Positions 687 through 32,402 are shown, counted from the stretch's first letter. The stretch is 34,925 bases of DNA from an uncultured Bacillota bacterium (GCA_900317575.1 ONHH01000107.1:1-34925); one strand, 5' to 3'. The notes: generated by a model not told the origin, from the sequence alone. Program-made: numbers and translations.

Positions 687-722
687 AAATGCTGAAAGAT
701 ATTCTTTCAGCATTTTATTTTT
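687..722. terminator. bidirectional rho-independent terminator between convergent genes
   Basis: Stem AAATGCTGAAAG (687-698) / CTTTCAGCATTT (704-715) with a 5-nt loop. An A-run lies on the left and a T-run on the right. Overlaps the lysR stop. Confidence 0.8.
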
Positions 723-1599
723 TATTGATAATTGTATCTTTGACCATAGAAAAGATATTGCTTTTAGTACTATGGGTTCTTGTAACTAAGGTAATATTTC
801 TTTTTGGAGCTTTTTCTAGTAAATCAATGATAAAACATTTTTCATCTTTGATAGCTTCAAGTGCCATTTCTTTAGGAATAAAAGCTAATCCATAATTCTT
901 TTCAACCATTGGTGTTATCACACCAACACTATCAGTTTCATATTCAGGGTGGAATATTATATTATATTTAGCTGCGAAGCTATCGATATGGACTCTAAAT
1001 TGATTATCTTTTGAAAGAAGAATTAAAGGATAATTAATTAGGTCTTTTATAGATAGGGGACTATTGATTTTATTTTTATAATTATTCCCAGCGATAATAA
1101 CATCTTCAATTTTTTTAATTTGATAAAGTTCTAGATCTTGCTCAATTTTAAATGGAGTTGTCACGAAAGCAAAATCAATCTTACCCTTATCAACCATATC
1201 TAAGATTTTAGTTGTTGAACCAGTATAGATTTGATAATGAATATTAGGGAATTGTCCTTGTAAACTCTTTACTAAATCAAATACATAGCATTCAAGAGAG
1301 GTAAGGGTTGCGCCAATATAGATATCTGCATCAACAGCTTTACTAAAATTTTGAATATCTTTTTCAATTCGTGATAATTGATTGAAAGGTATTTCAATCA
1401 TTTGATATAATCTTTCTCCTTCTTTAGTTAGCATTACTCCACTCTTAGTTCTTAAAAAAAGTTTGGTTGAAAGCTCAGCTTCAAGGCTAGAAATAATTCT
1501 TGAAATAGCTGGTTGGGATGTATATAATTCTTTTGCAGCTTTTGAGAAATTGTGATATTCACATACTAAATAAAACACTTTTAAATATTCATAATTCAT
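715..1599 (-). CDS. LysR-family transcriptional regulator
   Basis: 294 aa. N-terminal winged-HTH signature FSKAAKELYTSQPAISRIISSLE...LFLRTKSGVMLTKEG. GGAG lies upstream of the ATG. Divergent from the 1719-9329 operon. Confidence 0.9.
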   Translation of the reverse strand: MNYEYLKVFYLVCEYHNFSKAAKELYTSQPAISRIISSLEAELSTKLFLRTKSGVMLTKEGERLYQMIEIPFNQLSRIEKDIQNFSKAVDADIYIGATLTSLECYVFDLVKSLQGQFPNIHYQIYTGSTTKILDMVDKGKIDFAFVTTPFKIEQDLELYQIKKIEDVIIAGNNYKNKINSPLSIKDLINYPLILLSKDNQFRVHIDSFAAKYNIIFHPEYETDSVGVITPMVEKNYGLAFIPKEMALEAIKDEKCFIIDLLEKAPKRNITLVTRTHSTKSNIFSMVKDTIINKK

Positions 1600-1622
1600 A
1601 GATTACTCCAGATATAACAAAT

Positions 1623-1640
1623 TGATATAACATTATATCA
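1623..1640. promoter_or_regulatory. inverted repeat TGATATAA-ca-TTATATCA, candidate LysR operator; also carries the lysR extended -10 (minus strand, 1632-1640)
   Basis: 8+8 bp perfect inverted repeat. On the minus strand it reads TGATATAAT 32 nt upstream of the lysR ATG. A direct repeat GATATAACA occurs at 1611-1619 and 1624-1632. Confidence 0.45.
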
Positions 1641-1718: not shown

Positions 1719-3389
1719 ATGAAGTATTTATCTAAAATATTGATAGTATTTCTCTTAATTAGTATTTTAATTACCACATCATGTGGTACTAAAGATGAAG
1801 ATAAACATAATAATTATGATGATGTTACTTATGATATATCTATTAATCAAGATAATTCATTAACTGCACATTTACTTAAGGTTGGTAATGAATATACTTT
1901 AACAATTAATGGAACAGGTAAAGGAAAATCTTTTAATAAAAAAGAAGAAGTTCCTTGGAATCCAGTTGTTAAAAAAATAACTCAAGTCTTCATTAATGAT
2001 GGTATAACTAGTATTGGTGATTATTATTTTTCCTCAATTGCTTTAAAACAAATTATTTTACCAAAGAGTGTTAGACGAATTGAAGATAATTCTTTTAATA
2101 GTATTACTGAATTATATTCATATAATACAGAAGTTGATAACGCAAAATATAATAATATTTATTATTATAGTGAAAATGAACCAACTACTAATGGTAATTA
2201 TTTCCATGTTGTTAATGATCAAATTGTATTATGGAAGATAATTAAATTATTATTTATTGGTAATAGTTTTACTTATCGACCAGGAACAACTGATAATCCA
2301 TTTATTCCATATGCTTTTATGGAACTTGGAAAGAAAGCAGGTCTTAATTTACAAGTAGATTCTGTAGTAATGGGATCTTATACCTTAGCTAAATTTATTA
2401 ATCCTAGTGATTCAATGGGTGCAATTGTTAATCAAAAATTAGATGATAATAATGATTATGATTATATTATTCTTCAAGAGCAATCAACTACACCAATTAA
2501 TTCATATAATGGTTTTGAAACAGCTGTTGGTAAATTTGTTACGAAAGTAAAAGAAACCCAAGATCATGCGAAAATAATATTATATGAAACATGGGGATCA
2601 CCTGGAGGCTTATCTTCAGCTAATTGTAAAACCATTGAAGAAATGGAAGATAAATTGAGAAAAGCTTATGCTGATTGTGGTGATAAATATAATTTACAAG
2701 TTAATTATGTAGGTAAAGGCTTCACTCATGTCTATAAGAATTATCCAGATATCAATTTATATGATGCAGATGAAAGACATCCATCATATGAAGGAGCATA
2801 TTTATCGAGCTGTATTCATTTAATATCTATCTTTGGTTTAGATATCACCAATGTTGATTTTAAATATTCATTAGGTGATAAAGCATCTCTATTAAGAAGA
2901 ATAGCAATGGATGTATGTCATGATACTACAATATATACTAATTCAAGTACTGAACCGGAAATAGATATTGATGAAGTAATTGAAAATCCCGTTATTAAAA
3001 TTGCGTGGTATGCAAAAACTGCTACTAGTGGATTGAATGAAACAATTATTAAAAAATTAAAAGCTGGTATTATTGAATATTTAAAGAAGAATAATATCGC
3101 AAATAGCGATAAAGTGTATTTGAAAAGCTACAGTGGAAATGTAGAAAGTAGCTGTGGTGCCATTCTAATGGATGGCGATGTTGATGTAATGGTTGGATGG
3201 AAATCCAACGTTGATACCGTGGGTTATATTGATTATCTTCAAGCCTATCCTGGTAATGATTCAAGTGAACCTGGTATCAAAATGGGGAATGTTGAAGGTC
3301 GCTGGATTCATTTATTGAGAAATAATGAAGTAGCGCGATTAGTTTTTAATTATTTAAAAACTAGTGAGGGGCAAGCTTTATTTAGTTAA
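1719..3389 (+). CDS. surface lipoprotein: BspA-type LRR segment + SGNH/GDSL-like hydrolase + C-terminal shared module
   Basis: 556 aa. Signal peptide with lipobox LITTSC (Cys22). LRR_5-like segment ITQVFINDGITSIGDYYF...ILPKSVRRIEDNSF. SGNH blocks FIGNSFT (Ser183, 2265-2267) and DERHPS (DxxH, 2769-2780). The C-terminal 133 aa (2988-3386) are shared with the next two genes. Confidence 0.8.
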   Translation: MKYLSKILIVFLLISILITTSCGTKDEDKHNNYDDVTYDISINQDNSLTAHLLKVGNEYTLTINGTGKGKSFNKKEEVPWNPVVKKITQVFINDGITSIGDYYFSSIALKQIILPKSVRRIEDNSFNSITELYSYNTEVDNAKYNNIYYYSENEPTTNGNYFHVVNDQIVLWKIIKLLFIGNSFTYRPGTTDNPFIPYAFMELGKKAGLNLQVDSVVMGSYTLAKFINPSDSMGAIVNQKLDDNNDYDYIILQEQSTTPINSYNGFETAVGKFVTKVKETQDHAKIILYETWGSPGGLSSANCKTIEEMEDKLRKAYADCGDKYNLQVNYVGKGFTHVYKNYPDINLYDADERHPSYEGAYLSSCIHLISIFGLDITNVDFKYSLGDKASLLRRIAMDVCHDTTIYTNSSTEPEIDIDEVIENPVIKIAWYAKTATSGLNETIIKKLKAGIIEYLKKNNIANSDKVYLKSYSGNVESSCGAILMDGDVDVMVGWKSNVDTVGYIDYLQAYPGNDSSEPGIKMGNVEGRWIHLLRNNEVARLVFNYLKTSEGQALFS

Positions 3390-3416
3390 TAAAAAATTTT
3401 CATATGGAGGTTAAAA

Positions 3417-4898
3417 ATGAAAATTAAAAATTTATTATTATTCTTAGTTTTAGCACTATTTATGATTGGTGCTGTTGCGTGTGACGACGACAAAGAACCA
3501 GCAGATGATCAACCTGTTGATGAAAAAACTGTTTATACAGTTATCTTTGAAGTTGATGGTGCTCGTCATGCTACTGCAAAAGTAGAAGCTGGTCAAACCA
3601 TTAAAGATGAAATTGCTGATCCAGTAAAAGAAAATCATTTATTTGTTTCTTGGATGGATGGCGAAACAGCTGTTGATCTTGCATCATACAAGGTAACAAA
3701 GAATGTTACTTTAACTGCTAAATTTGAAATGATTGATCATTCAGATTTAAATGTTAATATGACAAAAGAACCAGGTACAGCATACTATCTTGTAATTGGT
3801 TGGTGGGAATGTACTGATGTTAAAGATGATGGTTCTCCTAAATATACAAGTTATTTAACTGAACCACTTGTTCAATTATTCTATTACAATCTAAATCTAT
3901 ATCTAAAAGCTTGTGGAGCAAGTAATGATGATTTAGCTAAAGTAAGCTTCAGAAATTATTCTAGTAAAGATGTAGCAGCTATGGTAGCAGGCGTTAAAGC
4001 TGATGCAGATTGCGAAATCTTAATCGGTGTTGGTAACAATGTTAACTCATCTGGTAATTTAACACTTCTTGGTGGTAATGATGGTAAATGTGATGTTACA
4101 ATGGGTACTACTCCAACTACAAGAAAAGTAGCAGTTCTAGATGGCGCTGGTGAAGTTGCACAAAATGTATATGAATGGATTAAACATACTCAAGAAGGTA
4201 AAGATGCATTCAATAAACATTTAAATCCAGATACATTAGAAAAATATGTAGAAGTAATCAACCTAACTGTTACAGTTCATGGTGATACTGATGCTGTTAC
4301 TGAATTACATGATCGTGAAACTTTAATCAATTTACCTACTATTACTGTTCCAACTGGTAAAGCATTTGCTGGTTTTGCGACAAGTGAAAATGCTGAAGAA
4401 GCTCAATTAGTTGCAAATGTTGATTCAGAATTAAAGTATGGTGATGTTGAAAAATTAGCAACAGGTGCTACTCTTGATTTATATCCAGTATTTGTTGAAA
4501 AGAATACAAGTGATAAAGTATTAATCGTTTATGTACATATGTCAGCTAGTAAATCAACATATATTACAGATGATGAATTAACTCTATTAGAAGCTAATTT
4601 CAAAGCTACTCTTGAAGAAGGAGAAAGTGTACAATTCGTTCCAATTAAAGGTGTAAACGGCGAAGGCTTTAATAAAGCTGTATTGGCTGTTATTGAAGAA
4701 GGAACAATTGTTGATATGGTTATTGGTGGTAATACTATTACTTCAACAGCTCCTGTACTAGTTGCTGAAAATTATGATGTTGCAGCTGGACATTTTGCTA
4801 AGGACTCTCGTAAATTTGGTGTTCTTACTGGTTGCAACAGTGAAGATATTGCTGCTAAATTAACTGCATTCTTATCTACACCAGTAGTTACTGAATAA
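3417..4898 (+). CDS. surface lipoprotein: Listeria-Bacteroides (Flg_new) repeat + two copies of the shared module
   Basis: 493 aa. Strong SD GGAGG. Lipobox IGAVAC (Cys22). Flg_new-like segment YTVIFEVDG...HLFVSWMDGE...VTLTAKF, with a second degenerate Flg_new-like segment around residues 280-360. Module copies lie at about 3777-4220 and 4512-4886. Codon usage is visibly GC3/T3-richer than in neighbouring genes. Confidence 0.8.
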   Translation: MKIKNLLLFLVLALFMIGAVACDDDKEPADDQPVDEKTVYTVIFEVDGARHATAKVEAGQTIKDEIADPVKENHLFVSWMDGETAVDLASYKVTKNVTLTAKFEMIDHSDLNVNMTKEPGTAYYLVIGWWECTDVKDDGSPKYTSYLTEPLVQLFYYNLNLYLKACGASNDDLAKVSFRNYSSKDVAAMVAGVKADADCEILIGVGNNVNSSGNLTLLGGNDGKCDVTMGTTPTTRKVAVLDGAGEVAQNVYEWIKHTQEGKDAFNKHLNPDTLEKYVEVINLTVTVHGDTDAVTELHDRETLINLPTITVPTGKAFAGFATSENAEEAQLVANVDSELKYGDVEKLATGATLDLYPVFVEKNTSDKVLIVYVHMSASKSTYITDDELTLLEANFKATLEEGESVQFVPIKGVNGEGFNKAVLAVIEEGTIVDMVIGGNTITSTAPVLVAENYDVAAGHFAKDSRKFGVLTGCNSEDIAAKLTAFLSTPVVTE

Positions 4899-4914
4899 AA
4901 GATTTAATAATACA

Positions 4915-5700
4915 ATGAAAAGAATAATCTTACTTTTCCTTTTATTAGTAGTAGGATTGACAACAACATCTTGTATTGCAGGTGTTTTTGAAGAAGAAAT
5001 AAAAGTCGTATTTGTATGTGATGGAGATGAAATCGGATCAGGAGTTGTTACTCAATTTAAGAATATCAAGACTCCTGAACTTGATTCAAAATATATTCCA
5101 GCTAATTATAAATTCTTTGGTTGGACAGCTTTAAATCCTAATAAGATTAAAGCAACTGATGAAAACTTTAGTGAAGAATATCTCTATACTGGAGCAATGG
5201 TTCATTGGAGTGATATCAAAGATCATATCAAAAATAAGACTGTAACTTATCAAGCATTGATGATTAATAAAGATGATATTCCAGTAGTTCATCATTATGT
5301 ATCTATCGCATGGTATGATAAGGAAGCAACATCAGGCATTACTACTAAGCAAATGGAACAATTTACAACTAAACTAAAAGCATATTTAACTAGTCAAGGT
5401 GTTCCTGAATCTGAATTAAATACAATTGTTATTCGTGGATATACTGGTCAAGTTGGTCAATCATGTGGAGCTATTATGAAAGATGGTGACATTGATATTA
5501 TGCTTGGATGGGGTTCTAGATCTAATGTAGTTGATACAGGTGGTATGAAAGAAGAAATGCTACTTGAATCAGTTTCATTTCAGGTTACATATAATGGAAC
5601 AGTTAAGAATCGTAATATTCATCGTCTAACTGATAATGAAGCAGTATTATTAGTTATGGAATGGATGAAGGGCGAAGAATGCTCTAGCATCTTCAATTAG
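4915..5700 (+). CDS. surface lipoprotein: Flg_new repeat + shared module
   Basis: 261 aa. Lipobox GLTTTSC (Cys20). Flg_new-like segment IKVVFVCDGDEIG...YKFFGWTALNP. The C-terminal 138 aa (5284-5697) align with 2988-3386 through IAWY.K.ATSG, Y(S/T)G.V..SCGAI..DGD.D.M.GW and R.IH.L..NE. Confidence 0.8.
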   Translation: MKRIILLFLLLVVGLTTTSCIAGVFEEEIKVVFVCDGDEIGSGVVTQFKNIKTPELDSKYIPANYKFFGWTALNPNKIKATDENFSEEYLYTGAMVHWSDIKDHIKNKTVTYQALMINKDDIPVVHHYVSIAWYDKEATSGITTKQMEQFTTKLKAYLTSQGVPESELNTIVIRGYTGQVGQSCGAIMKDGDIDIMLGWGSRSNVVDTGGMKEEMLLESVSFQVTYNGTVKNRNIHRLTDNEAVLLVMEWMKGEECSSIFN

Positions 5701-5709
5701 GAGGGCTAT

Positions 5710-8139
5710 ATGAAAAGAAAATATTTAAAATTAGCTCAAATATTTGAATATATCTTCGCATTCATCTATGCCTTTATTTGTGCTTTATTCTTCTCAGTTA
5801 GTGAAAAGATTTATATCGTATTCTTAATTCTTGTACCATTATCATTGATGATGGGTTTATATCAAGAAGGTATTAAATATCGTTTAGAAGAAGATAGTGA
5901 ATTTACTGCAAAAGATAAGATCGCTCAAATTGTAATAACAATATTATCTATCATTTCTTGTCCTAGTATTATCTTTAATATTTTGGCTTTATTATCTAAT
6001 AAAGAAGATAACAAAGAACTTAAACCAAGAGAAGAAAAAGAACATATTGAAAAGAAATGGTATCAAAAATCATCTGTTATTACAGCTTGCGCATCATTTG
6101 TATTGATTCTATTACTTTCTTTAACTGGTTTCTTAGTTGAATCAAGTATGGGCAAAGTACAAGTTAAAGATTTTACTTTAACTAAAGCTGAAACTGATTT
6201 ATATAATCGTGGTCAAGCTTTAAATGGTACTAGTTATACAATTGATGATCCAACTGTATCAGTATCTTATACTCTATATAAACCTAAAGATGCATCAGCT
6301 ACTAATATTTATCCAGTAGTCTTTGTTCTTCCTGGCTTTACTAGAACTAAGGCGACAATGGCGCAATATGCGATTGAACTTTCTCGCCGTGGAGCAGTTG
6401 TCTTTACTATTGACCCAGGTTCACAAGGAGCTACTACTTATGGTGGATATGAAGCTGATGAAAATGGAGAATATATCTTAGATGAGAACGGCAATAAAAC
6501 CCAAAATTCATATAGCGTAGCTAGAAGTGGTATGGGATATTTAGTGCAATATGTCTACAATAATGTTAATGATTTTGATTATATCGATCGTGATCGTTTC
6601 GGTATTGCGGGACATAGTGCTGGTGGTGGTGATGCATGTAAACTTGCGGCAGACTTTGCAGGTACAACTGATGAATCATCAATCATTAAAGCCTTATATA
6701 TCTCTGGATATATTAAAACATCTGCAGCTAGTCAATTCTATAAATTAAGATGTAATACAGCTCTATCATATGCTAAATATGATGAAGGTTCATTTAGATA
6801 TCAAGATGAAAATCAAGCTTATGAAGTAATTGCGTTAAGATTTATTAATGAAGTTAATAGTAAAACTGCAGGAAAAAATGGTCATTTTGATGAATTCGAA
6901 GAAGATAAAGATTATGGTGATATTAGTACTGGTACTTATCGTATTATTCATCATGAAGATATCAATCACTGTTTTGAAATGTATGATCCATTATCAATTA
7001 CTAATACTATTAATTTCTTTAGAAGATGTCTTAATTTAGAAACTGATTTAGCTGATAATAAACAAGTATGGTTTGGTAAAGAATTATCTAATGGTTTAGC
7101 TCTTGCGGCAGCCTTTACATTAATTATTTCATTAGTATATATTGTAGTAGAATATGTACCATTTATGAAATCATTAAAGGTGGCAGGTGATGCAAGATTA
7201 CTTGAAGAAAAGACAATCAGAGAAGAATATACATCTGATGGCTATGTAAGAATGGAACTTGGAACTAAACGTAAATATCGTAGTTTTGGTAAACGTTGTT
7301 TATTCTGGCTACCAATGATTCTTACAGCTATTATTGCATGTTTAGATTACATTCCTCTCGCAAGATTATCAATGGATCTATTCCCTGATGCAGCCGGTAA
7401 TACTTATACATATTACTTCCCTGCAAGAATGATGAATGCCGTCTTCTTATGGGCTGTAATCAATGGATCTGTTGGTCTTGTTATTTGGTGTCTAACTACC
7501 TTATTAGAAAATTTATATTATACAATTGAATCAAAGATTAAAGGCTGTGAAAATCGTAGTGATTGGTCTAAATTCAAAGGCTTAAAAGTTAAACCTCTTG
7601 ATTTACTTAAATCATTAGGCTTTGCGGTATTATTATTTGCAGTATTCTATGGATTATTACAATTAATGTATTTATTAACTCATCAAGATTGGCGTTTCAT
7701 GCTAGTTTCAGCATCTCCTCTTCAAATGAGATTTGTTGTTACATGGTTAATTTATCTAGCTGGATTCTTTGTATTCTATATTTCTAATTCAATTAGAGTT
7801 AATCTTACTATCGCAAGAGAAGGCTATAAAGAATGGCAAGTATTATTAATATCAGCTTTAGCTAATTCTCTTGGTTTAGTATTCATTATCATTATTAATT
7901 ATTTTGTATATTTTAAAACTGGTACAGTTTATTATGGATTCTATTCTAAAACTGACGCATCAGAAATGTGGTTATATATCAATATGGTATTCCCACTAAT
8001 AGTTATGATGGGTATATTACCAATCTTTAATCGTCTTGTTTATAAAAAATTTGGAAATGTTTATGCAGGTGCTCTACTTTGGTGTATGATCTTTATTATG
8101 ATGTCACTATCTGCATCAATATCATTCATTCCAATGTAA
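5710..8139 (+). CDS. polytopic membrane protein with an embedded alpha/beta-hydrolase (esterase-like) domain
   Basis: 809 aa. SD AGGAGGG. About 3-4 N-terminal hydrophobic segments. A soluble domain of roughly 300 aa contains VVFVLPGFTRTK and the nucleophile elbow GIAGHSAGGG (Ser303, 6616-6618). By eye, about 8 further hydrophobic segments run to the C-terminus. Confidence 0.8.
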   Translation: MKRKYLKLAQIFEYIFAFIYAFICALFFSVSEKIYIVFLILVPLSLMMGLYQEGIKYRLEEDSEFTAKDKIAQIVITILSIISCPSIIFNILALLSNKEDNKELKPREEKEHIEKKWYQKSSVITACASFVLILLLSLTGFLVESSMGKVQVKDFTLTKAETDLYNRGQALNGTSYTIDDPTVSVSYTLYKPKDASATNIYPVVFVLPGFTRTKATMAQYAIELSRRGAVVFTIDPGSQGATTYGGYEADENGEYILDENGNKTQNSYSVARSGMGYLVQYVYNNVNDFDYIDRDRFGIAGHSAGGGDACKLAADFAGTTDESSIIKALYISGYIKTSAASQFYKLRCNTALSYAKYDEGSFRYQDENQAYEVIALRFINEVNSKTAGKNGHFDEFEEDKDYGDISTGTYRIIHHEDINHCFEMYDPLSITNTINFFRRCLNLETDLADNKQVWFGKELSNGLALAAAFTLIISLVYIVVEYVPFMKSLKVAGDARLLEEKTIREEYTSDGYVRMELGTKRKYRSFGKRCLFWLPMILTAIIACLDYIPLARLSMDLFPDAAGNTYTYYFPARMMNAVFLWAVINGSVGLVIWCLTTLLENLYYTIESKIKGCENRSDWSKFKGLKVKPLDLLKSLGFAVLLFAVFYGLLQLMYLLTHQDWRFMLVSASPLQMRFVVTWLIYLAGFFVFYISNSIRVNLTIAREGYKEWQVLLISALANSLGLVFIIIINYFVYFKTGTVYYGFYSKTDASEMWLYINMVFPLIVMMGILPIFNRLVYKKFGNVYAGALLWCMIFIMMSLSASISFIPM

Positions 8140-8156
8140 AAAGGAGAAATTAACTT

Positions 8157-9329
8157 ATGGATTATCGTAAAGAATCTCTAAAGAAACATGCTGAATGGCA
8201 AGGTAAAATAGAGATTAAACCGAGAGTTGAAGTAGATACAAGGGAAAAATTATCATTAGCTTATACTCCAGGAGTAGCAGAGCCATGTCTTGCGATAAGA
8301 GATGATCAAGATAAAAGCTTTACTTTAACTAGAAGATGGAATACAGTTCCTGTTATTACTGATGGAACAGCAGTTCTTGGATTAGGAAATATTGGTCCTT
8401 TAGCTGGTATGCCAGTAATGGAAGGTAAATGTGCTCTCTTTAAGACCTTTGGTGATGTTGATGCATATCCATTATGTATTAATACTACTGATACAGAAGA
8501 AATAATTAAAACAATTAAATTATTTGCTGGATCATGGGGAGGCATTAATCTAGAAGATATTTCAGCACCTCGTTGTTTTGAAATAGAAACAAGATTAAAA
8601 GAAGAATTAGATATTCCAGTATTCCATGATGATCAACATGGAACTGCTATTGTAACTGCAGCCGCTTTACTTAATGCCTTAAAACTTGCTAATAAGAAAT
8701 TAGAAGAAGTTAAAATTGTTATTAATGGAGCAGGTGCTGCTGGTATATCTATTTGTAAATACCTACTAAGCTTTGGTGCAAAACATGTTATAGTTTGTGA
8801 TTTAAAAGGAATTATCTATGATGGTGCTCCATGGTTAAATGAACCACAAAAGGAAATCGCAAAATTAACTAATCAATCAAAGAAATCTGGTTTACTTAAA
8901 GATGCAATGCTAAATAGTGATGTCTTTATTGGTGTATCTGGACCTAATTGTGTAACTAAAGAAATGGTTAAATCAATGAATGATAAATCAATTCTCTTTA
9001 CACTTGCTAACCCAGTTCCAGAAATCAATCCTAAGGACGCAAAAGAAGCAGGTGCATTTATTATTGGAACAGGTTCTAGTGAATACGCAAATCAAATCAA
9101 TAATGTATTAGTATTCCCAGGCTTATTTAGAGGAGCATTAGATGCTAGAAGCTCAACTATTAATATTGAAATGATGAAGGCTGCATCAATTGGTATTAGT
9201 AGTTGTGTAAGTGATGAAGAATTATCACCTGATTATATTCTTCCATATGCTTATGATAAAAAAGCTCATAAAGCTGTAAGTAAAGCTGTTAAAGAAGCTG
9301 CTTATAGAACCGGAGTTAATAAAATATAA
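8157..9329 (+). CDS. NAD(P)-dependent malic enzyme (short, about 390-aa type)
   Basis: 390 aa. LSLAYTPGVAEPC, VITDGTAVLGLGNIGP, FGGINLEDI-like GGINLEDISAPRCFEIE, and the dinucleotide fold INGAGAAG. SD AGGAG. Confidence 0.9.
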   Translation: MDYRKESLKKHAEWQGKIEIKPRVEVDTREKLSLAYTPGVAEPCLAIRDDQDKSFTLTRRWNTVPVITDGTAVLGLGNIGPLAGMPVMEGKCALFKTFGDVDAYPLCINTTDTEEIIKTIKLFAGSWGGINLEDISAPRCFEIETRLKEELDIPVFHDDQHGTAIVTAAALLNALKLANKKLEEVKIVINGAGAAGISICKYLLSFGAKHVIVCDLKGIIYDGAPWLNEPQKEIAKLTNQSKKSGLLKDAMLNSDVFIGVSGPNCVTKEMVKSMNDKSILFTLANPVPEINPKDAKEAGAFIIGTGSSEYANQINNVLVFPGLFRGALDARSSTINIEMMKAASIGISSCVSDEELSPDYILPYAYDKKAHKAVSKAVKEAAYRTGVNKI

Positions 9330-9333
9330 AATA

Positions 9334-9369
9334 AAAAATAGAGTTCTAAATATTTAGAACTCTATTTTT
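9334..9369. terminator. bidirectional terminator between the malic enzyme gene and def
   Basis: Long palindrome AAAAATAGAGTTCTAAATATTTAGAACTCTATTTTT. Overlaps the def stop codon. Confidence 0.8.
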
Positions 9370-15839: not shown

Positions 15840-15855
15840 ATAATAGGTGAAGAGA

Positions 15856-18720
15856 ATGAAAAAAGTCGGATTGTTTTTTCTTTTATTATCATTAATCATC
15901 TTTATTTCATCTTGTAATTTAATTAATAAATATGCAGGAAATGAATATAAAGTTACTTTTATGGCGGGTGAAGAAACAGTAACGACTTCTCTTGATAGTT
16001 ATATTGCGGGGAAGCGTTATAAGCTTCCTCTTTTAAATGATACTAAGTCATTAAAATTTGTTGGTTGGTTTTTAAATAAAGAATTTAAAGGAACTAAACA
16101 AACAGTTATCCCAGTTAGTAGTTATGGAGATAAAACTTATTTCGCAAAATTTGATATTGTTGATTCGACTATGCTACCAGTCAATTTTGATATTGCGTTA
16201 AAGAAATTAACAATAGCTGATTATGATATCAAAAGGATAATTGATGATGAAATAATTAGAGAAAGATTAATTGTTAATAATAATACAAGGTATTATAAAT
16301 TCTATAATGATTTAGATCATAAATATTATGAATATTATTTTAATAATGATAATTATGATTCTAATATCTATTATAATGAAGATGATCGATGGTATAAAAT
16401 AGATCTTGATCATCCATCCTTCTTTACTTATTTTAAAAAGATCTTTTCTCTTTATCCATCTAGAGTAAGTGATATCATTGATAATTACGCATATATCAGT
16501 GATTATGTTTATGAAACAAAAGATAATTTTGGTAAAAGATATCTGGAATATTTTACTAATCTCAATACCGAAAATATGGATAAAGTAAAAATTAGATTTT
16601 ATTTTAAGAATCCTAATAATATTGAAAAGATTGAATTATTCTATTATGATAAGCTTTATAAAAAAGATATTAAATATGAATTAAATATCACGACTTATGA
16701 TAAATTAAAAATTGATCTACCAGAAGATATTTATAATATCTATGGAACCGAACTTAAAATTAAAGATGTTAAAAACATTACTGAAAAATCCATAGTGGAA
16801 TTTAGAGGTATCATCAGTAGTAAATTCATTCTTAATGATGAATCGTATTATATGATTAATGATGAAACTGCATCGATAATTATTAAAGATCATAATGATA
16901 AATTAATTAGTGGCGATAAAATCATTGTTAAAGGAATAATGGAAAATCATCAATTTATTGAAGAACCAAATATTAGCTTAATCAGTCTTAATAATGAAAT
17001 CATTAAAGAAACAGTCGATGAATTAAAAGAAATAAATGATGATAATCTATATGATATTAATTTATTGAGAGTAATTAATCATAATGATAATCAATATCTC
17101 TTAAAAGATTATAATGATGATTATATTTATTACACAACTGATAAAGAATTAATTATTAATTCATGTATTAAATTAAATAATATTATTTATTATGAAAATA
17201 AGTTAATTGACAGTATGGATACTAAGATTGATGTAATCTATAATGATGGTGATGAATTATCAATCAATTATTTGAAATTAGATAATGAAGCGCTTGATAT
17301 TGATAATGGCACACAAATTGATGAAATTAAAGAATTAATTAAATGCTATAAATATTATAATAATGGGGATAAAGAATTATTAGATTCTTCATTATTTGAA
17401 ATTAGTTGTGATAATTATTCTCCATTCGTTGTTGGAAAATATTATTTTAAATTGACTTATTTATCTTATCAAATTAATTTTATTATTAATGTATATGAGA
17501 ATGATGATTCAATTCTACATTTTGGAACTTATAAGACCTTATATGATATTGCGGAAGAGAATGAATTAGGAGTTCCAATTAAATCAATTGGTGATGTTAA
17601 TTTATTAATCGTACCAGTCCTTTTTATTGATCAAGAAGTAAGAATTGATTTAAAAAATAAAATTGAAGAAGCCTTCTTTGGCTATGATACCGGCTATGAA
17701 AGTGTCACCAGCTATTATCATAAATCATCATTTGGTAAATTAAATATTCAGGGAGATGTTGCGAAACCAATATCTTGTGATTATTCAACATCAGCTGTAG
17801 AATTAGCTTATAGTAAGAACAAAAATAGCTTAGGCTTGATGCTGCAAACACTCCTTAAACGAATGGATGATGAAATTGATTATAGTAAATATGATGGTTT
17901 ATTCTTTATTTATGATGCACCATATATTAGCTATAATAATGATGAAGTATTCTGGGCTAGAACATCTAAATTTAATAAATCAATAACTTTAGATGAAAAG
18001 AATTTTGATTATTTTGCGTTTGCATCTAGTTATTATATGGATGATAAATTAAGAGATGGATCAACTATTTTCATCAATTCTACAACCTATATTCATGAAA
18101 TGGGACATTTGTTAGGTCTAAGTGATTATTATGACACTTTAAAATCAACTACTGGTCGTTTAGGTGGTAGTGGTGGTGGAAATATGATGGATCAAACTAT
18201 TGGTGATTTAGATCCATTTAGTAAATTATTATTAGGTTGGATTGAACCAACAATTGTTTACAATAAGACAATTGAAATGAGTCTTGCTAAATATGAAATA
18301 AAAAATGAAGCTATCTTAATTCCTAAGAAATGGGAAAAAGATATCTTCAGTGAATATTATTTAATTATTTATTATACGCCAGATAATTTAAATGAAAAAG
18401 AAAAAGGATATAGTGGTTTAATAGATGATAGTGGTATTATTATTTATCATGTAGACGCAACATTAAAACCTAATATTACTAATATCTTTGATCTTACTTT
18501 ATATAATAATGATGCGACATCACCTCATAAATTATTAGATGTTATTGAAGCTGATCATAATAATTCGATTATTAATGGCGAATATTTTAATAGTAATGAT
18601 CTATTTAAAGTCAATAATATTTTTGATTTTGGTACTTGGAATAATAAAGTAAAACTTAATTACCAAATCACTATTAAATCAATTGGTGATACCGCAAGAA
18701 TACTTATTGAATATATATAA
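15856..18720 (+). CDS. lipoprotein, M6 (immune inhibitor A-like) zinc metalloprotease with an N-terminal Flg_new repeat
   Basis: Lipobox IFISSC. Flg_new segment YKVTFMAGEE...LKFVGWFLNKEF...TYFAKF. HEMGHLLGLSDYYD (HEXXH at 18094-18108), preceded by VNLLIVPVLFIDQ and followed by IIIYHVD, as in M6 domains. ATG 15856 is preferred over GTG 15847 because AGGTGA lies 5 nt upstream. Confidence 0.8.
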   Translation: MKKVGLFFLLLSLIIFISSCNLINKYAGNEYKVTFMAGEETVTTSLDSYIAGKRYKLPLLNDTKSLKFVGWFLNKEFKGTKQTVIPVSSYGDKTYFAKFDIVDSTMLPVNFDIALKKLTIADYDIKRIIDDEIIRERLIVNNNTRYYKFYNDLDHKYYEYYFNNDNYDSNIYYNEDDRWYKIDLDHPSFFTYFKKIFSLYPSRVSDIIDNYAYISDYVYETKDNFGKRYLEYFTNLNTENMDKVKIRFYFKNPNNIEKIELFYYDKLYKKDIKYELNITTYDKLKIDLPEDIYNIYGTELKIKDVKNITEKSIVEFRGIISSKFILNDESYYMINDETASIIIKDHNDKLISGDKIIVKGIMENHQFIEEPNISLISLNNEIIKETVDELKEINDDNLYDINLLRVINHNDNQYLLKDYNDDYIYYTTDKELIINSCIKLNNIIYYENKLIDSMDTKIDVIYNDGDELSINYLKLDNEALDIDNGTQIDEIKELIKCYKYYNNGDKELLDSSLFEISCDNYSPFVVGKYYFKLTYLSYQINFIINVYENDDSILHFGTYKTLYDIAEENELGVPIKSIGDVNLLIVPVLFIDQEVRIDLKNKIEEAFFGYDTGYESVTSYYHKSSFGKLNIQGDVAKPISCDYSTSAVELAYSKNKNSLGLMLQTLLKRMDDEIDYSKYDGLFFIYDAPYISYNNDEVFWARTSKFNKSITLDEKNFDYFAFASSYYMDDKLRDGSTIFINSTTYIHEMGHLLGLSDYYDTLKSTTGRLGGSGGGNMMDQTIGDLDPFSKLLLGWIEPTIVYNKTIEMSLAKYEIKNEAILIPKKWEKDIFSEYYLIIYYTPDNLNEKEKGYSGLIDDSGIIIYHVDATLKPNITNIFDLTLYNNDATSPHKLLDVIEADHNNSIINGEYFNSNDLFKVNNIFDFGTWNNKVKLNYQITIKSIGDTARILIEYI

Positions 18721-26933: not shown

Positions 26934-26975
26934 AAATAAAATTATGTAATAGGAAATAATGGTATTAAATTGAAT

Positions 26976-27791
26976 ATGAAGAAGTCACTAATCACTTTTA
27001 TCACACTTTTATCAGTATTATTATATTTGAATATTAATTTTACTAATATATGTAGTAGTAATTCAAGCGAAACTAGAAATATAAATGCTGATTATAAAAT
27101 CTATGGAGATTTATTATATAAGGAGATTCCAATAAGTCAATTACATAAAAATGGATGTACTATAAATTTACTAAGTGAAGAAGTATTTATTAGAATTGTG
27201 GGATTGAGTGAAGAAGGGAAAAATAAAGAAATTATCATTATTCCTCAGTATATTAATGGGATAGAAGTTAAGGAAATAGGAGAGATTAGTAAGAGTATAG
27301 AAATATACTGGGAATCTGAAAAATTGAGAAGAGTATATATGGATTTTGCACCAAAATCTTTCTATAATGTTTTTAAGCAAATTAAATGTATATTATGTGT
27401 GAATGAAATACCTAATGATTGTATAATTAATCAGCATATATATATATCCAGTTATAACCATGTAAATGGAGATATATATAATAATGTCGAAAGAGATTAT
27501 AGAGGACAAAGCAATTATTGTTACTATGCTAATGTTTCATATTTTTATAATTATGATGATGCTCCAGAAAATGGATATTATTTTATTGATGATTATGAAT
27601 ATGGGACCAAAATAAATTATATACCACCTAATCCTACAAGAGAGGGGTTTTTATTTGAAGGGTGGTATAAAGAGAAAGAATGTGTTAATAAATGGAATTT
27701 TGATTCTGATACATTACCTATAAGAGAATATGTAGATTCAAAAGTGAAATATCAAGAAACCAGACTATTTGCAAAATGGATTAAAGAATAA
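26976..27791 (+). CDS. secreted/surface protein with a BspA-type LRR segment and a C-terminal Flg_new repeat
   Basis: Signal peptide MKKSLITFITLLSVLLYL. IIIIPQYINGIEVKEIGE is LRR_5-like. PPNPTREGFLFEGWYKEKE...ETRLFAKW is a clear Flg_new repeat. The SD is weak, and the start could instead be TTG 26970. Confidence 0.7.
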   Translation: MKKSLITFITLLSVLLYLNINFTNICSSNSSETRNINADYKIYGDLLYKEIPISQLHKNGCTINLLSEEVFIRIVGLSEEGKNKEIIIIPQYINGIEVKEIGEISKSIEIYWESEKLRRVYMDFAPKSFYNVFKQIKCILCVNEIPNDCIINQHIYISSYNHVNGDIYNNVERDYRGQSNYCYYANVSYFYNYDDAPENGYYFIDDYEYGTKINYIPPNPTREGFLFEGWYKEKECVNKWNFDSDTLPIREYVDSKVKYQETRLFAKWIKE

Positions 27792-27894: not shown

Positions 27895-28779
27895 ATGAAA
27901 ACATATGATGCGCATGTTGATGTATTTAGTAATCTATATGAAAGAACTATAAAAGGAGAAACAGAAGTCTTTAAAAAATATCACCTTGATAATATGAAAA
28001 AAGGAGAAATTGCTGGTGGTATATGGGTAGTCTATAGTGAATATGATTTTGATGTCTATGAAGCCTATAAGATTGCGTTAAAAGATTTTGAACCATATAA
28101 GAATGAATTTGATGTAACTTTAGGACTAGAAGGCTTAAGAAATGTTCATAATCTTGATGAATTAAAGAAGATGCATGATTTAGGTATTAGACATGCTATG
28201 CTAACTTGGAATGAAGAAAATCATCTATCAACTGGTGTAGCTGGTCCTAGTGATCATGGATTAAAAGAAGAAGGGAAAAAATTCCTTCGCTTTATGGAAG
28301 ATAATAATTGGATTGTTGATGTCAGTCATGCAAATATAAAAAGCTTCTATGATATCTTAGATTATGTATCTAAACCGGTTATCGCAAGCCATTCATGCTG
28401 CTACAGCTTATCTGATCATCGTCGTAATTTAAATGATGATCAATTAGCACTCTTAAAAAAGACTAGTGGTTATGTAGGTGTTAATAGTGCTCGTAATTTT
28501 GTTAGTAAAGATAAAGATCATCAAAATATTCAAGGACTAGTTGATCATATTGAATATTTAGTTGATAAATTAGATATTGATCATGTCATGTTTGGTTTAG
28601 ATATGATGGATTTCTTAGATGATTTTGGTAAGAAACCTAATCTTGATGATTTAGTAACTCATGCGGATACTCAAGGAATTATTAAAGAAATGTCAAGAAG
28701 AGGTTTTAATGAAGGAGACATTAGAAAGGTTGCAATGCTAAACTTTTTAGATATGCGTAAAAAACTAATAGGTAAATAA
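27895..28779 (+). CDS. M19-family (renal-type) dipeptidase
   Basis: 294 aa. DAHVDV at the N-terminus, LTWNEENHLSTG, IVDVSHAN, ASHSCCYSLSDHRRNLNDDQL. These are typical M19 metal-ligand blocks. Confidence 0.85.
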   Translation: MKTYDAHVDVFSNLYERTIKGETEVFKKYHLDNMKKGEIAGGIWVVYSEYDFDVYEAYKIALKDFEPYKNEFDVTLGLEGLRNVHNLDELKKMHDLGIRHAMLTWNEENHLSTGVAGPSDHGLKEEGKKFLRFMEDNNWIVDVSHANIKSFYDILDYVSKPVIASHSCCYSLSDHRRNLNDDQLALLKKTSGYVGVNSARNFVSKDKDHQNIQGLVDHIEYLVDKLDIDHVMFGLDMMDFLDDFGKKPNLDDLVTHADTQGIIKEMSRRGFNEGDIRKVAMLNFLDMRKKLIGK

Positions 28780-28780
28780 A

Positions 28781-30997
28781 ATGAAAATCTGTAAAATAAG
28801 TATTTCTTTAATTCTAATTTCCCTTATGGTTATTTTACTTGGCTCTTGGACAGCACCAACAGTTAAACCATATGTAAAAGAAGAAATAGAATTTAGAAGT
28901 GTTTGGGTTTGTACAGTTTCGAACATGGATGTTGATATGCAAATGGGAACTAGTGAAGATGCTATCAATAATTGGAAAAAACAATATTTAGAAATTTTAG
29001 AAACTTCTAAAGCGAAATCTTGTAATGCTATAATCTTCCAAGTAAGACCTAATAATGATGCTTTCTATCCATCTAAATATAATCCTTGGAGTGAATATTT
29101 AGCTGGATATGGTGTAGATCCAGGATGGGATCCTCTTGAATGGATGATTGAAGTAACTCATGCAGCTGGTTTAGAATATCATGCATGGCTTAATCCATAT
29201 CGTACTAGCACAATGACTTTATCTTATACTCCATATGGTTATGATTCAGCTACTAAATCTAATTACTGGTGTGATAATGATGAAGCTGAAGCTTATAATT
29301 ATAAACAAGATTTCTTTACTGGACTTGCAAATACTTTAAAACATCAAAATAATATTGTTGATAATCCAGTAATGGATACTGGAAATGTCTTAGATGAAGA
29401 AATCGTATTTGGAGCTGAAGGTAAATTTGTTCTTAATCCAGCTAATCCAAGAACTATTCAACATTTAAATAATACTATTGATGAATTAGTTACTAATTAT
29501 GATATTGATGGTATTCATTTTGATGATTATTTCTATCCTGATGATAAAAACTATCGTGGTAATAATAACAATTATAAAGGAATAACTTTCTCTACTGAAC
29601 CTAAATATGATTATCAAGATTATATGGCATATAAAGGTAATGGTGGAACATTATCAATCTATGATTGGCGTAGAGAAAATGTTAATAATTTAATTCATTC
29701 CTTAAGTCAAATAATTCGTGCTCATAATGAGACGTCTAAGGTTAAATGTGCATTTGGTATTAGTCCAGCCGCAAGATGGGCTCCATCTATTGAAACTTGT
29801 CCTGCAGGTTCTCCAAGAGCAGCTGAAGGCGGTGAAGATTCCGGCTGTAATAATTATTATTCTTATTCAGATTTATATGCTGATACTCGTAAATGGGTAA
29901 AAGAAAATTGGATTGATTATATCTTACCACAAGCATATACATATCTTGGAACTAGTTCTAATGGTACTCCGACAGGAACATATAGTAGTATTGTTAGCTG
30001 GTGGAGTAAAGAAATAGTAGGAACTAAATGTCGTTTATATATTGGTACACCAGCTTATCAAATAGCTACATGGAGATCTGGTAAATTATGTGAATTGACT
30101 GAATTGTTTTATCAAATCCGTTATTGTCAATCAATGAATTTCAATGTTGATGGCTTTGTAATGTTTAGATATAAATCTATTATTAGTGGTGATGGTGAAA
30201 AGGCTATGAATACAGTCATTAAAAATCTATGGCCAATGGCAGCTTTAACACCAATTTATGAATCATATTCATATCCTAAAGTAACTTCCTCAGCATCCAT
30301 TACTAAGATTGATCGTAATGATGAAAATAATTATTCAGTATATTATGAAGGTGTTGATAACGCTAAAGCCTATGGTATTGTTGATGAAGATGGTACGGCT
30401 GTAGCAAGAGTATTAGGTAAAGATTATGTGATGAATTTTAATGCTCAAAGCGGTAAGAAATATTATTTAATCACATATAGCCCTGATAATACAATCTTTG
30501 AAGAAAGAAAAGAAATTGATCTATCGATTGCAAAAGACAATGAAGCCCCAGTCATCACCATGAATGATGTAGAAAAAGAATATTTAACATCCGAATCGGT
30601 AACTTTTACTGCTCAAGTTACAGATGACCGTGATGCAGAATTAACTTATCAAGTATATCAATATTATGATGACGCAAGCTATTTATATAAAGAAGGAATT
30701 GTTGAAGGAAATAGTATTGAATTCACTTATAAGATGGATCAATATCCAACAGAGAATATCGCATTTGAAGTAGTAGTTAGTGATGGAAAAAATGAATCAA
30801 GATTTAAAACATCTTATTTCAATGTTGTATCAAAGAAAACTGATCCAACTCCTACTCCCCCAACACCAGTAGATCCAGTTGATCCAACACCAGTTCCTAC
30901 GGAACCTAAGAAAAAATGTGGTAAGAAGAGTATGATATTTGTTGAATTATTATCAATGATTAGTTTAATGGGAATAATCATTAGGAGGAAGAAATAA
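28781..30997 (+). CDS. extracellular GHL10-family (YngK/YddW-DigH-like, PF02638-type) glycoside hydrolase with a Pro/Thr stalk and C-terminal membrane anchor
   Basis: 738 aa. N-terminal signal/anchor. FRSVWV...IIFQVRPNNDAFYPSKYNPWSEYLAG, HAWLNPYR, DGIHFDDYFYP, WIDYILPQAY. C-terminal region TDPTPTPPTPVDPVDPTPVPTEP-KKKCGKK-hydrophobic-RRKK (30839-30994). Confidence 0.8.
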   Translation: MKICKISISLILISLMVILLGSWTAPTVKPYVKEEIEFRSVWVCTVSNMDVDMQMGTSEDAINNWKKQYLEILETSKAKSCNAIIFQVRPNNDAFYPSKYNPWSEYLAGYGVDPGWDPLEWMIEVTHAAGLEYHAWLNPYRTSTMTLSYTPYGYDSATKSNYWCDNDEAEAYNYKQDFFTGLANTLKHQNNIVDNPVMDTGNVLDEEIVFGAEGKFVLNPANPRTIQHLNNTIDELVTNYDIDGIHFDDYFYPDDKNYRGNNNNYKGITFSTEPKYDYQDYMAYKGNGGTLSIYDWRRENVNNLIHSLSQIIRAHNETSKVKCAFGISPAARWAPSIETCPAGSPRAAEGGEDSGCNNYYSYSDLYADTRKWVKENWIDYILPQAYTYLGTSSNGTPTGTYSSIVSWWSKEIVGTKCRLYIGTPAYQIATWRSGKLCELTELFYQIRYCQSMNFNVDGFVMFRYKSIISGDGEKAMNTVIKNLWPMAALTPIYESYSYPKVTSSASITKIDRNDENNYSVYYEGVDNAKAYGIVDEDGTAVARVLGKDYVMNFNAQSGKKYYLITYSPDNTIFEERKEIDLSIAKDNEAPVITMNDVEKEYLTSESVTFTAQVTDDRDAELTYQVYQYYDDASYLYKEGIVEGNSIEFTYKMDQYPTENIAFEVVVSDGKNESRFKTSYFNVVSKKTDPTPTPPTPVDPVDPTPVPTEPKKKCGKKSMIFVELLSMISLMGIIIRRKK

Positions 30998-32259: not shown

Positions 32260-32265
32260 TAAATG

Positions 32266-32299
32266 CCCTCTAATAGATTGCTATTAGAGGACTTTTTTT
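32266..32299 (+). terminator. rho-independent terminator
   Basis: CCTCTAATAG (32267-32276) / CTATTAGAGG (32281-32290), then T7. Confidence 0.85.
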
Positions 32300-32314
32300 A
32301 ATAATATATTTTTA

Positions 32315-32343
32315 TTGAAAAAAAATCTTATTTTTGGTATAAT
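32315..32343 (+). promoter_or_regulatory. promoter of the GH20 gene
   Basis: TTGAAA (32315-32320), 17-nt spacer, TGgTATAAT (32335-32343). Confidence 0.6.
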
Positions 32344-32402
32344 GATATAAAATAGGGTACTTTTTGAAAAATTGCAAAAATAAAAAAATTTCGAGGTAAA
32401 TT

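Follow-up and report, generated by a model that had tools for sequence, protein, structure and literature searches.

Malate loci described in Firmicutes (maePE/maeKR and mle) carry a malic-enzyme-family gene beside a dedicated regulator and a membrane component, the canonical arrangement being that of malic enzyme, regulator and transporter seen in maePE/maeKR of Lactobacillales (PMC5457438). A comparable locus, with a different set of membrane and surface proteins, is found in a 34,925-nt stretch of DNA from an uncultured Bacillota bacterium (GCA_900317575.1, ONHH01000107.1:1-34925), the whole of which we call the window. Five same-strand genes, g1 to g5 (1719-9329), are preceded by a promoter and a divergent lysR gene and followed by a terminator; they encode three predicted lipoproteins with a common unassigned module (g1-g3), a membrane hydrolase (g4) and a malic enzyme (g5), with one esterase-type domain in g1 and another in g4. 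This layout and this protein anatomy had both been put forward in a first-pass annotation made from the sequence alone, and both proved right. In gut and rumen Firmicutes these genes make up a conserved operon associated with LysR. It codes for an extracytoplasmic assembly with two esterases, which is linked genetically to the cytoplasmic malic enzyme; the assembly has one to three module lipoproteins, and the linkage of a module lipoprotein to g4 is obligatory. We read the cluster as a catabolic locus under regulator control that serves the use of an extracellular ester.

As in the LysR-controlled malolactic mle locus, the lysR gene is divergent from the catabolic genes, and signatures of catabolite control are common to the malate loci and the cluster. 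Unlike those loci, the cluster has no 2-hydroxycarboxylate-type or other recognisable malate permease; two surface esterases and the module lipoproteins are present instead, next to a small malic enzyme, and by analogy the lipoprotein/g4 set would occupy the position that the permease has in canonical malate loci. The tripartite ATP-independent periplasmic (TRAP) system DctPQM and the tripartite tricarboxylate transporter (TTT) TctABC are binding-protein-dependent secondary carboxylate transporters that carry C4-dicarboxylates, and they resemble the cluster in having binding-type proteins beside a polytopic membrane protein, with no ATPase. The cluster differs from both in showing no sequence or Pfam relationship to them and in having a membrane protein that carries a hydrolase.

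The hydrolase domain of g4 has the fold of actinobacterial cutinases and polyester hydrolases (PF12740; 7QJP, PHL7, the ancestral PETases 8ETX-8EU1, and the Streptomyces lipase 1JFR), together with their G-H-S-x-G elbow, Ser-Asp-His order and 'PGFT...A' oxyanion region. However, the cutinases are soluble enzymes of ~260 aa, whereas the g4 domain (~310 aa, 16-20% identity) is situated between transmembrane (TM) helices and fused to a domain of eight such helices (the 8-TM domain). With its multi-TM domain and a hydrolase-fold domain that faces outward at the membrane surface, g4 resembles in overall plan the OatA/PatB-type enzymes, from which it differs by having no AT3/MBOAT homology, an alpha/beta-hydrolase rather than an SGNH domain, and a catabolic gene context. 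Orthologues of the g1 esterase match DUF4886 (PF16227; PDB 4S1P), a family with no known activity (PMC9487903), for which g1 itself scores slightly under the cutoff, and g1 and its orthologues keep the Ser and the Asp-x-x-His. In g1 the esterase domain is joined to a BspA-type leucine-rich repeat (LRR) and a predicted lipoprotein anchor, and in this lineage also to the new module.

We found no description of the cluster, the module or the 8-TM domain in the searched literature, Pfam, NCBIfam or PDB, in agreement with the first-pass annotation, to which no described system of this composition was known. The regulator and the malic enzyme are ordinary parts and the esterase folds are known, while the gene combination, the lipoprotein module, the hydrolase-8TM fusion and a conserved palindromic control region are undescribed in the libraries and papers searched. 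The lineages that carry the cluster have almost no cultured members or experimentally characterised physiology, and the cluster holds two domains without a family (the module and the 8-TM domain) in addition to DUF4886; its coupling to a malic enzyme provides a concrete handle on substrate and function.

Conservation of the cluster in gut and rumen Firmicutes

A collection of 5.8 billion proteins contained more than 870 close homologues of g4, all of them unnamed or 'hypothetical', from metagenome-assembled genomes (MAGs) labelled Bacilli, Erysipelotrichaceae, Clostridia and Candidatus Enteromonas. For the synteny analysis one genome per species was scanned with the close g4 alignment, as a 41-sequence divergent alignment had no stretch conserved enough, and this yielded 80 loci (numbered with the prefix L) with full-length g4 relatives at 43-74% identity. 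Open reading frames (ORFs) were called in all 80 loci and searched with the window proteins and with a hidden Markov model (HMM) of the module; the 40 loci in which upstream sequence reached at least 6 kb and downstream sequence at least 1.3 kb made up a well-flanked subset. The 80 loci come from gut MAGs of rumen, human, mouse, chicken, rabbit and horse, and are assigned to Bacilli (RFN20/Acholeplasma-like), to Christensenellales-type Clostridia (including bins labelled Christensenella, Borkfalkiaceae, Gallimonas and Coproplasma) and, in a few cases, to bins labelled Spirochaetales.

In all loci with at least 900 nt upstream of g4 (72/72), a gene for a module lipoprotein stands immediately 5' of it. 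The well-flanked loci contain an SGNH/LRR gene in 35/40 cases, a divergent lysR in 31/40, and a malic enzyme gene on the same strand within 7 kb in 33/40, the last being downstream of g4, as in the window, in 15 loci and upstream in 18. Unsupervised clustering of 1000 neighbour genes from the 80 loci returned the same families (g4 79, module 75, malic enzyme 59, SGNH 56, LysR 46); the next commonest neighbour, a pyrophosphatase-like ORF, was found in 17/80 loci and every other one in at most 6. The malic enzyme is kept through eight different gene orders, with median gaps, where it is adjacent, of 16 nt for g4-malic enzyme, 13.5 nt for malic enzyme-module gene and 79 nt for malic enzyme-SGNH gene, and in Bacilli the g4-malic enzyme and malic enzyme-g1 junctions measure 4-44 nt. 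The minimal core of the cluster is a module lipoprotein plus g4; the SGNH enzyme, the malic enzyme and LysR are frequent but dispensable. Synteny in related genomes had been named beforehand as one of the points on which the idea of a single system would turn, and the genes are syntenic in about 80 species from two bacterial classes.

Components of ATP-binding cassette (ABC), TRAP, TTT and phosphotransferase (PTS) systems were absent both from the window genes, as searched with Pfam and NCBIfam, and from the conserved neighbours of the 80 loci, in line with the earlier claim of a cluster with no canonical transporter.

The recurring ORF of ~180 aa (e.g., L022 13617-14201, L043 13574-14122 and L033 3951-4523) looks like an inorganic pyrophosphatase, as judged by motif recognition. 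Locus L001 has a pyruvate phosphate dikinase gene after the malic enzyme, on the opposite strand. Several loci (L054, L070, L074, L078, L027 and L061) belong to bins labelled Spirochaetales/Sphaerochaetaceae, Prevotella or Alistipes, which reflects either mis-binning or lateral transfer of the cluster. The sole one of these with enough flank, L070, has an SGNH gene, a module gene and g4, with no malic enzyme or LysR, and the other Spirochaete-labelled contigs are too short to judge cluster content. In L079 (3215-6480), the g4 homologue is present as two overlapping ORFs of 711 aa and 387 aa, each matching g4; this may be due to a frameshift, an assembly error or a partial duplication.

The encoded proteins and their control region

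The g4 protein consists of four N-terminal TM helices, the alpha/beta-hydrolase domain and eight further TM helices, with a GHSAG motif at residues 301-305 and the triad Ser303-Asp358-His420. The hydrolase domain scored 25.2 bits against the PETase/cutinase-like Pfam family PF12740 (cutoff 28), and 32 of 41 family members matched PF12740 at E<=0.01 (best 1.3e-12). Among PDB sequences it comes closest to cutinases and polyester hydrolases of Actinobacteria (cutinase 7QJP, E=2e-8), and Foldseek returned template modelling scores (TM-scores) of 0.5-0.57 normalised to cutinases. Ser303 and His420 do not vary among 41 relatives with identities as low as 21%, at least 90% of which keep Asp358; Arg662 and Asn698 of the membrane domain are likewise invariant in these relatives. 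The hydrolase domain looks catalytically intact. In distant relatives of g4 the four-helix extension is absent and a single signal anchor directly precedes the hydrolase, and in g4 itself the loop after the fifth TM helix (490-529) carries 11 K/R. Based on the signal-anchor architecture of the relatives and on this K/R-rich loop, we infer that the hydrolase faces outward, on the extracytoplasmic side.

Sequence constraint is not confined to the catalytic domain. Across 76 species, positions conserved at 97% or more make up 24% of g4 aa 530-809, the same proportion as in the catalytic domain, and 1% of the N-terminal helices. The conserved polar residues of the 8-TM domain include D546, R573, N576, H658, D660 and R662, and further N693, N698, E704, N758 and R775, among others. 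Because the 8-TM domain is constrained like the catalytic domain and is rich in conserved Arg, Asn, Asp and His, it appears to be more than an anchor. A profile of the domain retrieved nothing from the PDB sequences at E<=10, and Foldseek with the whole g4 model gave matches to the hydrolase domain only.

The combination of hydrolase and 8-TM domain extends well beyond the cluster. A search of 1.84 billion representatives found 532 clusters related to g4, most of their members being proteins of 600-700 aa in which a signal anchor is combined with the hydrolase and the 8-TM domain. Lachnospiraceae, Oscillospiraceae, Actinobacteria and Treponema have such proteins, annotated only as 'alpha/beta hydrolase'. 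Members of this wider family (e.g., from Diplocloster hominis, Ruthenibacterium and Cryobacterium arcticum) keep the equivalents of S303, H420, R662 and N698, but differ from the g4 loci in having neither the four-helix extension nor module lipoproteins, an SGNH partner or a malic enzyme. When wider-family contexts were examined singly, 4/6 adjoined genes for glycerol kinase, GlpP, glycerol-3-phosphate (G3P) dehydrogenase or iron-containing alcohol dehydrogenase (Fe-ADH), without glpF. With a metagenome sample included, glycerol-gene neighbours were present in 12/74 loci (~16%; L086, L087, L088/L089, L090, L132-L136, L142, L152 and L155), and the impression of a general link of the wider family to glycerol was moderated after this sample of 67 loci. 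The glycerol-gene neighbours link hydrolase-8TM proteins to the catabolism of a hydrolysis product, and the wider family looks like a group of membrane-integrated carboxylic-ester hydrolases whose product is, in some lineages, catabolised by neighbouring genes.

The predicted lipoproteins g1 and g3 have an N-terminal hydrophobic helix followed by an invariant Cys (C22 in g1, 45/45 orthologues; C20 in g3). The lipoboxes of g1, g2 and g3 (TTSC, AVAC and TTSC, respectively) are non-canonical, departing at positions -3 to -1 from the L-[AS]-[GA] consensus. In g1, the LRR_5 match at aa 86-138 exceeded its cutoff (32 bits), and the DUF4886/SGNH match at aa 241-385 was slightly below it (24.5 bits against a cutoff of 26.7), with orthologues scoring 27.3-36.9 bits. 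The esterase domain as a whole spans about aa 175-400 and matches PDB entry 4S1P at E=1e-4. Its catalytic Ser183 (G181-N182-S183, within FIGNSFT) and Asp351-x-x-His354 are present in 45/45 aligned orthologues, and the enzyme looks catalytically intact and active. The g1 family is present in 56/80 loci; its extra-long orthologues (967-1427 aa) contained no carbohydrate-binding or other informative domain.

The shared module, of ~130 aa, lies at aa 426-556 of g1, about aa 144-266 of g2 and aa 125-261 of g3. BLASTP aligned g1 426-556 with g3 129-261 at 32% identity (E=1e-19) and g1 with g2 144-266 at E=1e-6, and the module HMM, run over the whole window, matched g1, g2 and g3 only. The module had no match in Pfam, NCBIfam or the PDB sequences, and relatives carry it in 1-5 tandem copies. 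Besides the module, g2 has a Flg_new domain at aa 40-102 (Pfam) and a Flg_new-like second segment at about aa 275-365; aa 365-493, plausible as a module by eye and by transitive phmmer although not significant against the g3 profile, is probably a diverged second copy. The g3 protein, which matched nothing in Pfam or NCBIfam, is made of a Flg_new-like beta domain (aa 24-124) and the module, and an AlphaFold model built from 47 homologues (predicted local distance difference test, pLDDT, 92) shows an alpha/beta sandwich of five strands after the beta domain. Foldseek found for this model a weak match to one lobe of ModA-type binding proteins (best E=0.012, TM-score 0.32-0.38 over ~96-100 residues). 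We rejected a type-II periplasmic binding protein as the identity of g3, since the model has one alpha/beta lobe and not two hinged lobes.

By its sequence, g5 is a canonical small malic enzyme, with Pfam scores of 96.8 bits for malic (PF00390) and 86.3 bits for Malic_M (PF03949) and PDB matches to 2A9F (E=2e-126), 5CEE and 2HAE. A malolactic enzyme was rejected (NCBIfam NF041582, 77 bits against a cutoff of 850). The parallel to MleR drawn in the first-pass annotation is therefore a loose one: the LysR divergence stands, and the enzyme is a small malic rather than a malolactic enzyme. The domain calls made there were upheld by the searches of the window proteins in Pfam, NCBIfam and PDB and with AlphaFold and Foldseek.

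The LysR protein matches HTH_1 (PF00126, 68 bits, E=7e-19) and LysR_substrate (PF03466, 90 bits, E=1.5e-25), both above cutoff. A consensus scan recovered the extended -10 promoter that had been placed at 1650-1678 (TTTACA-17-TATAAT, with TG before the -10). This promoter makes up one half of a perfect palindrome of 11+11 nt, TTTACATTATA-N12-TATAATGTAAA, in which the operon promoter and the lysR promoter each score 11/12. The palindromic element occurs once in the window (0 expected by chance), and with its fixed 12-nt spacing it is found in 19 of 42 lysR-divergent intergenic regions, in both Bacilli and Clostridia: in the window-like Bacilli loci L015 and L069 the SGNH gene is first in the operon, and in 16 Clostridia loci the malic enzyme is first. 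The box ATAACAAATTGATAT, of the T-N11-A type, has its centre at about -64 relative to the start site predicted for the operon, where LysR sites classically lie (near -65). It is a perfect dyad in L069 (ATATCAAATTGATAT), and the aligned box keeps its position in Bacilli and Clostridia loci. It is the likely candidate for the LysR recognition site, to which LysR is predicted to bind, and the operon is probably LysR-controlled.

The palindrome is lacking in several sub-clades (L022, L023, L024, L029, L032, L068, L073 and L077), among which LysR is more distant in L022-L024 (E 1e-15 to 1e-21) and closer in L068, L073 and L077 (E 1e-55 to 1e-62). The leaders of these sub-clades contain boxes resembling the catabolite-responsive element (cre), such as TGAAAGCGCTTTCA and TGTAACCGCTTACA, with 4 exact matches and 8 matches at up to one mismatch, which suggests CcpA-type catabolite control there.

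A possible ester-to-malate route and its alternatives

We consider it possible, with a probability of roughly 0.4, that the cluster encodes a LysR-controlled machine for surface capture and de-esterification which feeds a C4 acid, probably malate, to the malic enzyme. According to this model, the LRR and Flg_new domains together with the modules would hold an extracellular carboxylic ester at the surface, where the SGNH enzyme and the membrane hydrolase would cleave it beside the membrane. The freed acid, most probably L-malate or another C4 acid usable by the malic enzyme, would then enter the cell, with g4 and its conserved polar 8-TM domain as the likely route, as there is no other transporter in the cluster. 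Inside the cell, the malic enzyme would turn the acid into pyruvate, CO2 and NAD(P)H, and LysR, acting on the box at about -64, would switch the palindromic promoter towards the operon when its effector (malate or the product) is present. In favour of this model are the tight gene spacing with one promoter and one terminator, the synteny, the palindromic promoter and T-N11-A box common to both classes, two esterases that look active, the outward-facing hydrolase, the constraint on the 8-TM domain and the precedent of glycerol-gene neighbours in the wider family. The cre-like boxes of other sub-clades fit it too, being expected for a catabolic operon.

Hydroxycinnamoyl-malate esters from forage plants would be candidate substrates, as would other esters or polyesters that contain malate. 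Such malate esters are plentiful in forage legumes: the caffeic acid derivatives of red clover leaves, among them caffeoyl-malate, amount to 5-15 mmol/kg fresh weight (PMC7838361). A bacterial polymalate hydrolase was reported as not being a serine esterase (PMC9210645), and its likeness to the present enzymes would be a functional analogy only. If the ester-to-malate model is true, it would show how abundant gut bacteria harvest plant organic-acid esters, and would represent a new architecture that joins extracellular hydrolysis with uptake.

Several observations weigh against this model. The malic enzyme is absent from 7/40 well-flanked loci and LysR from 9/40, and therefore the esterase core can work without either; moreover, no substitute catabolic gene was found near the core in loci without malic enzyme. 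In the Clostridia-type gene order, the malic enzyme-SGNH gap usually holds a GC-rich hairpin without a U-tract (L033, L034, L039, L042, L046, L049, L051-L053, L056, L057 and L060), the folded gap having an energy of about -23 to -107 kcal/mol, typically about -30. These stem-loops may be attenuators or mRNA-stability elements, and the malic enzyme may be partly uncoupled, or differentially expressed, in this order. Malate as the product of the ester is suggested by gene neighbourhood only, and two esterases seem excessive for a simple mono-ester. The first-pass annotation had described the lipoproteins as binding-protein-looking, of which there remains the single-lobe Foldseek match (E ~0.01), a weak likeness of the modelled module to binding proteins. 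As for g4, the positive-inside rule gives an ambiguous topology for the four N-terminal helices. The 8-TM domain returned only noise, with no transporter similarity, from Pfam and NCBIfam (E<=10 and E<=1), and an internal 4+4 repeat was not detected by hhalign (probability 0.3). Members of the wider family most often adjoin a MarR regulator (37/74 loci, the hydrolase being recovered in 67) and not a catabolic enzyme.

A more specific proposal, which we regard as unlikely, is a new kind of hydrolysis-coupled, binding-protein-assisted uptake: the outward-facing serine esterase fused to an 8-TM conduit, fed by the module lipoproteins, would import the released malate for decarboxylation by the malic enzyme, and the mechanism would be unrelated to ABC, TRAP, TTT or PTS systems. 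If such an uptake machine exists, the wider hydrolase-8TM family would import other ester moieties, e.g., glycerol.

The chemistry of g4 could also be directed at lipids. Among solved proteins, its hydrolase domain is most closely related to cutinases, to polyester hydrolases and to a Streptomyces lipase, SGNH enzymes include lipases, and g4 relatives adjoin the genes for glycerol kinase, GlpP, G3P dehydrogenase and Fe-ADH mentioned above, one of them (L090) lying near a GDSL lipase, an acyltransferase and GDPD. On this account, a membrane lipase or cutinase would remove acyl chains and glycerol from lipids of the diet or the host (acylglycerols, galactolipids or cutin/suberin-type polyesters), the 8-TM domain would handle the hydrophobic product, and the malic enzyme would be merely co-regulated, e.g., for NAD(P)H or pyruvate. 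Yet the 80 loci of this subfamily have no conserved neighbour for glycerol, fatty-acid (FakAB-type) or lipid metabolism, the link to glycerol is found in only ~16% of the wider family, and the retention of the malic enzyme through eight rearrangements is left unexplained. We regard such lipid or polyester scavenging as unlikely.

That retention also speaks against an inherited adjacency, by which LysR and the malic enzyme would be a central-metabolism pair lying beside an unrelated surface-protein operon, the block having spread vertically and by whole-block transfer. The other neighbours of g4, the pyrophosphatase-like gene excepted, are scrambled, whereas the malic enzyme stays on the same strand in all eight orders, on either side of the core; the g4-malic enzyme and malic enzyme-g1 junctions in Bacilli are tight, and one conserved promoter/operator is used whichever gene leads. 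The loci in which the core, with or without the SGNH gene, occurs without malic enzyme or LysR (7/40) agree with mere adjacency, as do the hairpins that lie, in many Clostridia loci, between the genes for the malic enzyme and the SGNH enzyme. So does the proximity of the malic enzyme to pyruvate phosphate dikinase (L001) and to the pyrophosphatase-like gene (17 loci), which suggests a central-metabolism setting. Overall, we find this explanation quite unlikely.

A role in envelope remodelling appears very unlikely. In this scenario, g4 and g1 would deacylate, or transfer acyl groups to or from, the cell's own lipoproteins, glycolipids or wall polymers, in an OatA/PatB/DltD-like architecture with the adjacent lipoproteins as substrates or partners. 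The polytopic domain joined to an outward hydrolase-fold domain and the obligatory adjacency of the lipoprotein genes (72/72) would suit it, and several SGNH families work on envelope polymers as O-acyltransferases (PMC9487903). However, the cluster has no AT3/MBOAT-type domain or envelope-biosynthesis gene, the cre boxes and the LysR/malic-enzyme linkage point to catabolism, and the cluster is found in Acholeplasmatales/Mollicutes-labelled Bacilli as well as in Clostridia MAGs, which likely differ in envelope type. A shedding of the neighbouring lipoproteins by g4, through deacylation of their anchors, was rated low for want of precedent and supporting evidence. Even if one of the conservative readings is right, the cluster provides a setting for membrane-integrated esterases that form a large and uncharacterised family.

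Layout of the locus and other features of the window

Positions of the features of the locus in the window (aa, amino acids).
Feature	Position	Strand	Description
lysR	715-1599	-	294 aa, LysR-type transcriptional regulator, divergent from the operon
Candidate LysR recognition box ATAACAAATTGATAT	1614-1628		T-N11-A dyad, read from the sequence
34-bp palindrome TTTACATTATA-N12-TATAATGTAAA	1650-1683		Two fully overlapping divergent sigma70-type promoters: operon (+), lysR (-)
g1	1719-3389	+	556-aa predicted lipoprotein: BspA-type LRR, SGNH/DUF4886 esterase, C-terminal module
g2	3417-4898	+	493-aa predicted lipoprotein: Flg_new plus module
g3	4915-5700	+	261-aa predicted lipoprotein: Flg_new-like beta domain plus module
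g4, whole gene	5710-8139	+	809 aa
g4, N-terminal extension	5710-6144	+	aa 1-145, four predicted TM helices
g4, alpha/beta-hydrolase domain	6145-7068	+	aa 146-453, cutinase/PETase-like
g4, C-terminal 8-TM domain	7069-8139	+	aa 454-809
g5	8157-9329	+	390 aa, small NAD(P)-dependent malic enzyme
Intrinsic terminator	9334-9369		Bidirectional, 16-bp stem, common to the convergent def gene

The G+C content of the window is ~28%. According to the ORF listing, the genes from g1 to g5 are separated by 27, 16, 9 and 17 nt, and a Shine-Dalgarno sequence is found upstream of g1, g2, g4 and g5, with none obvious for g3. In a consensus scan the hairpin behind g5 scored as a terminator on either strand, and no terminator-like hairpin was detected in the gaps between g1 and g5. 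Within the operon the scan gave two weak hairpin matches only (3095-3111 and 5836-5854), both inside coding sequence, so the earlier statement that the genes have no hairpin between them is correct.

Elsewhere in the window, 15847-18720 and 26970-27791 encode products of 957 aa and 273 aa, respectively, both of which are predicted to be surface proteins; they carry Flg_new repeats and lack the lipoprotein module. A run of genes on one strand at 27895-34199 encodes an M19 dipeptidase, two GHL10-family proteins and a GH20 hexosaminidase-type protein, and may be a cluster for the utilisation of glycans or amino sugars.

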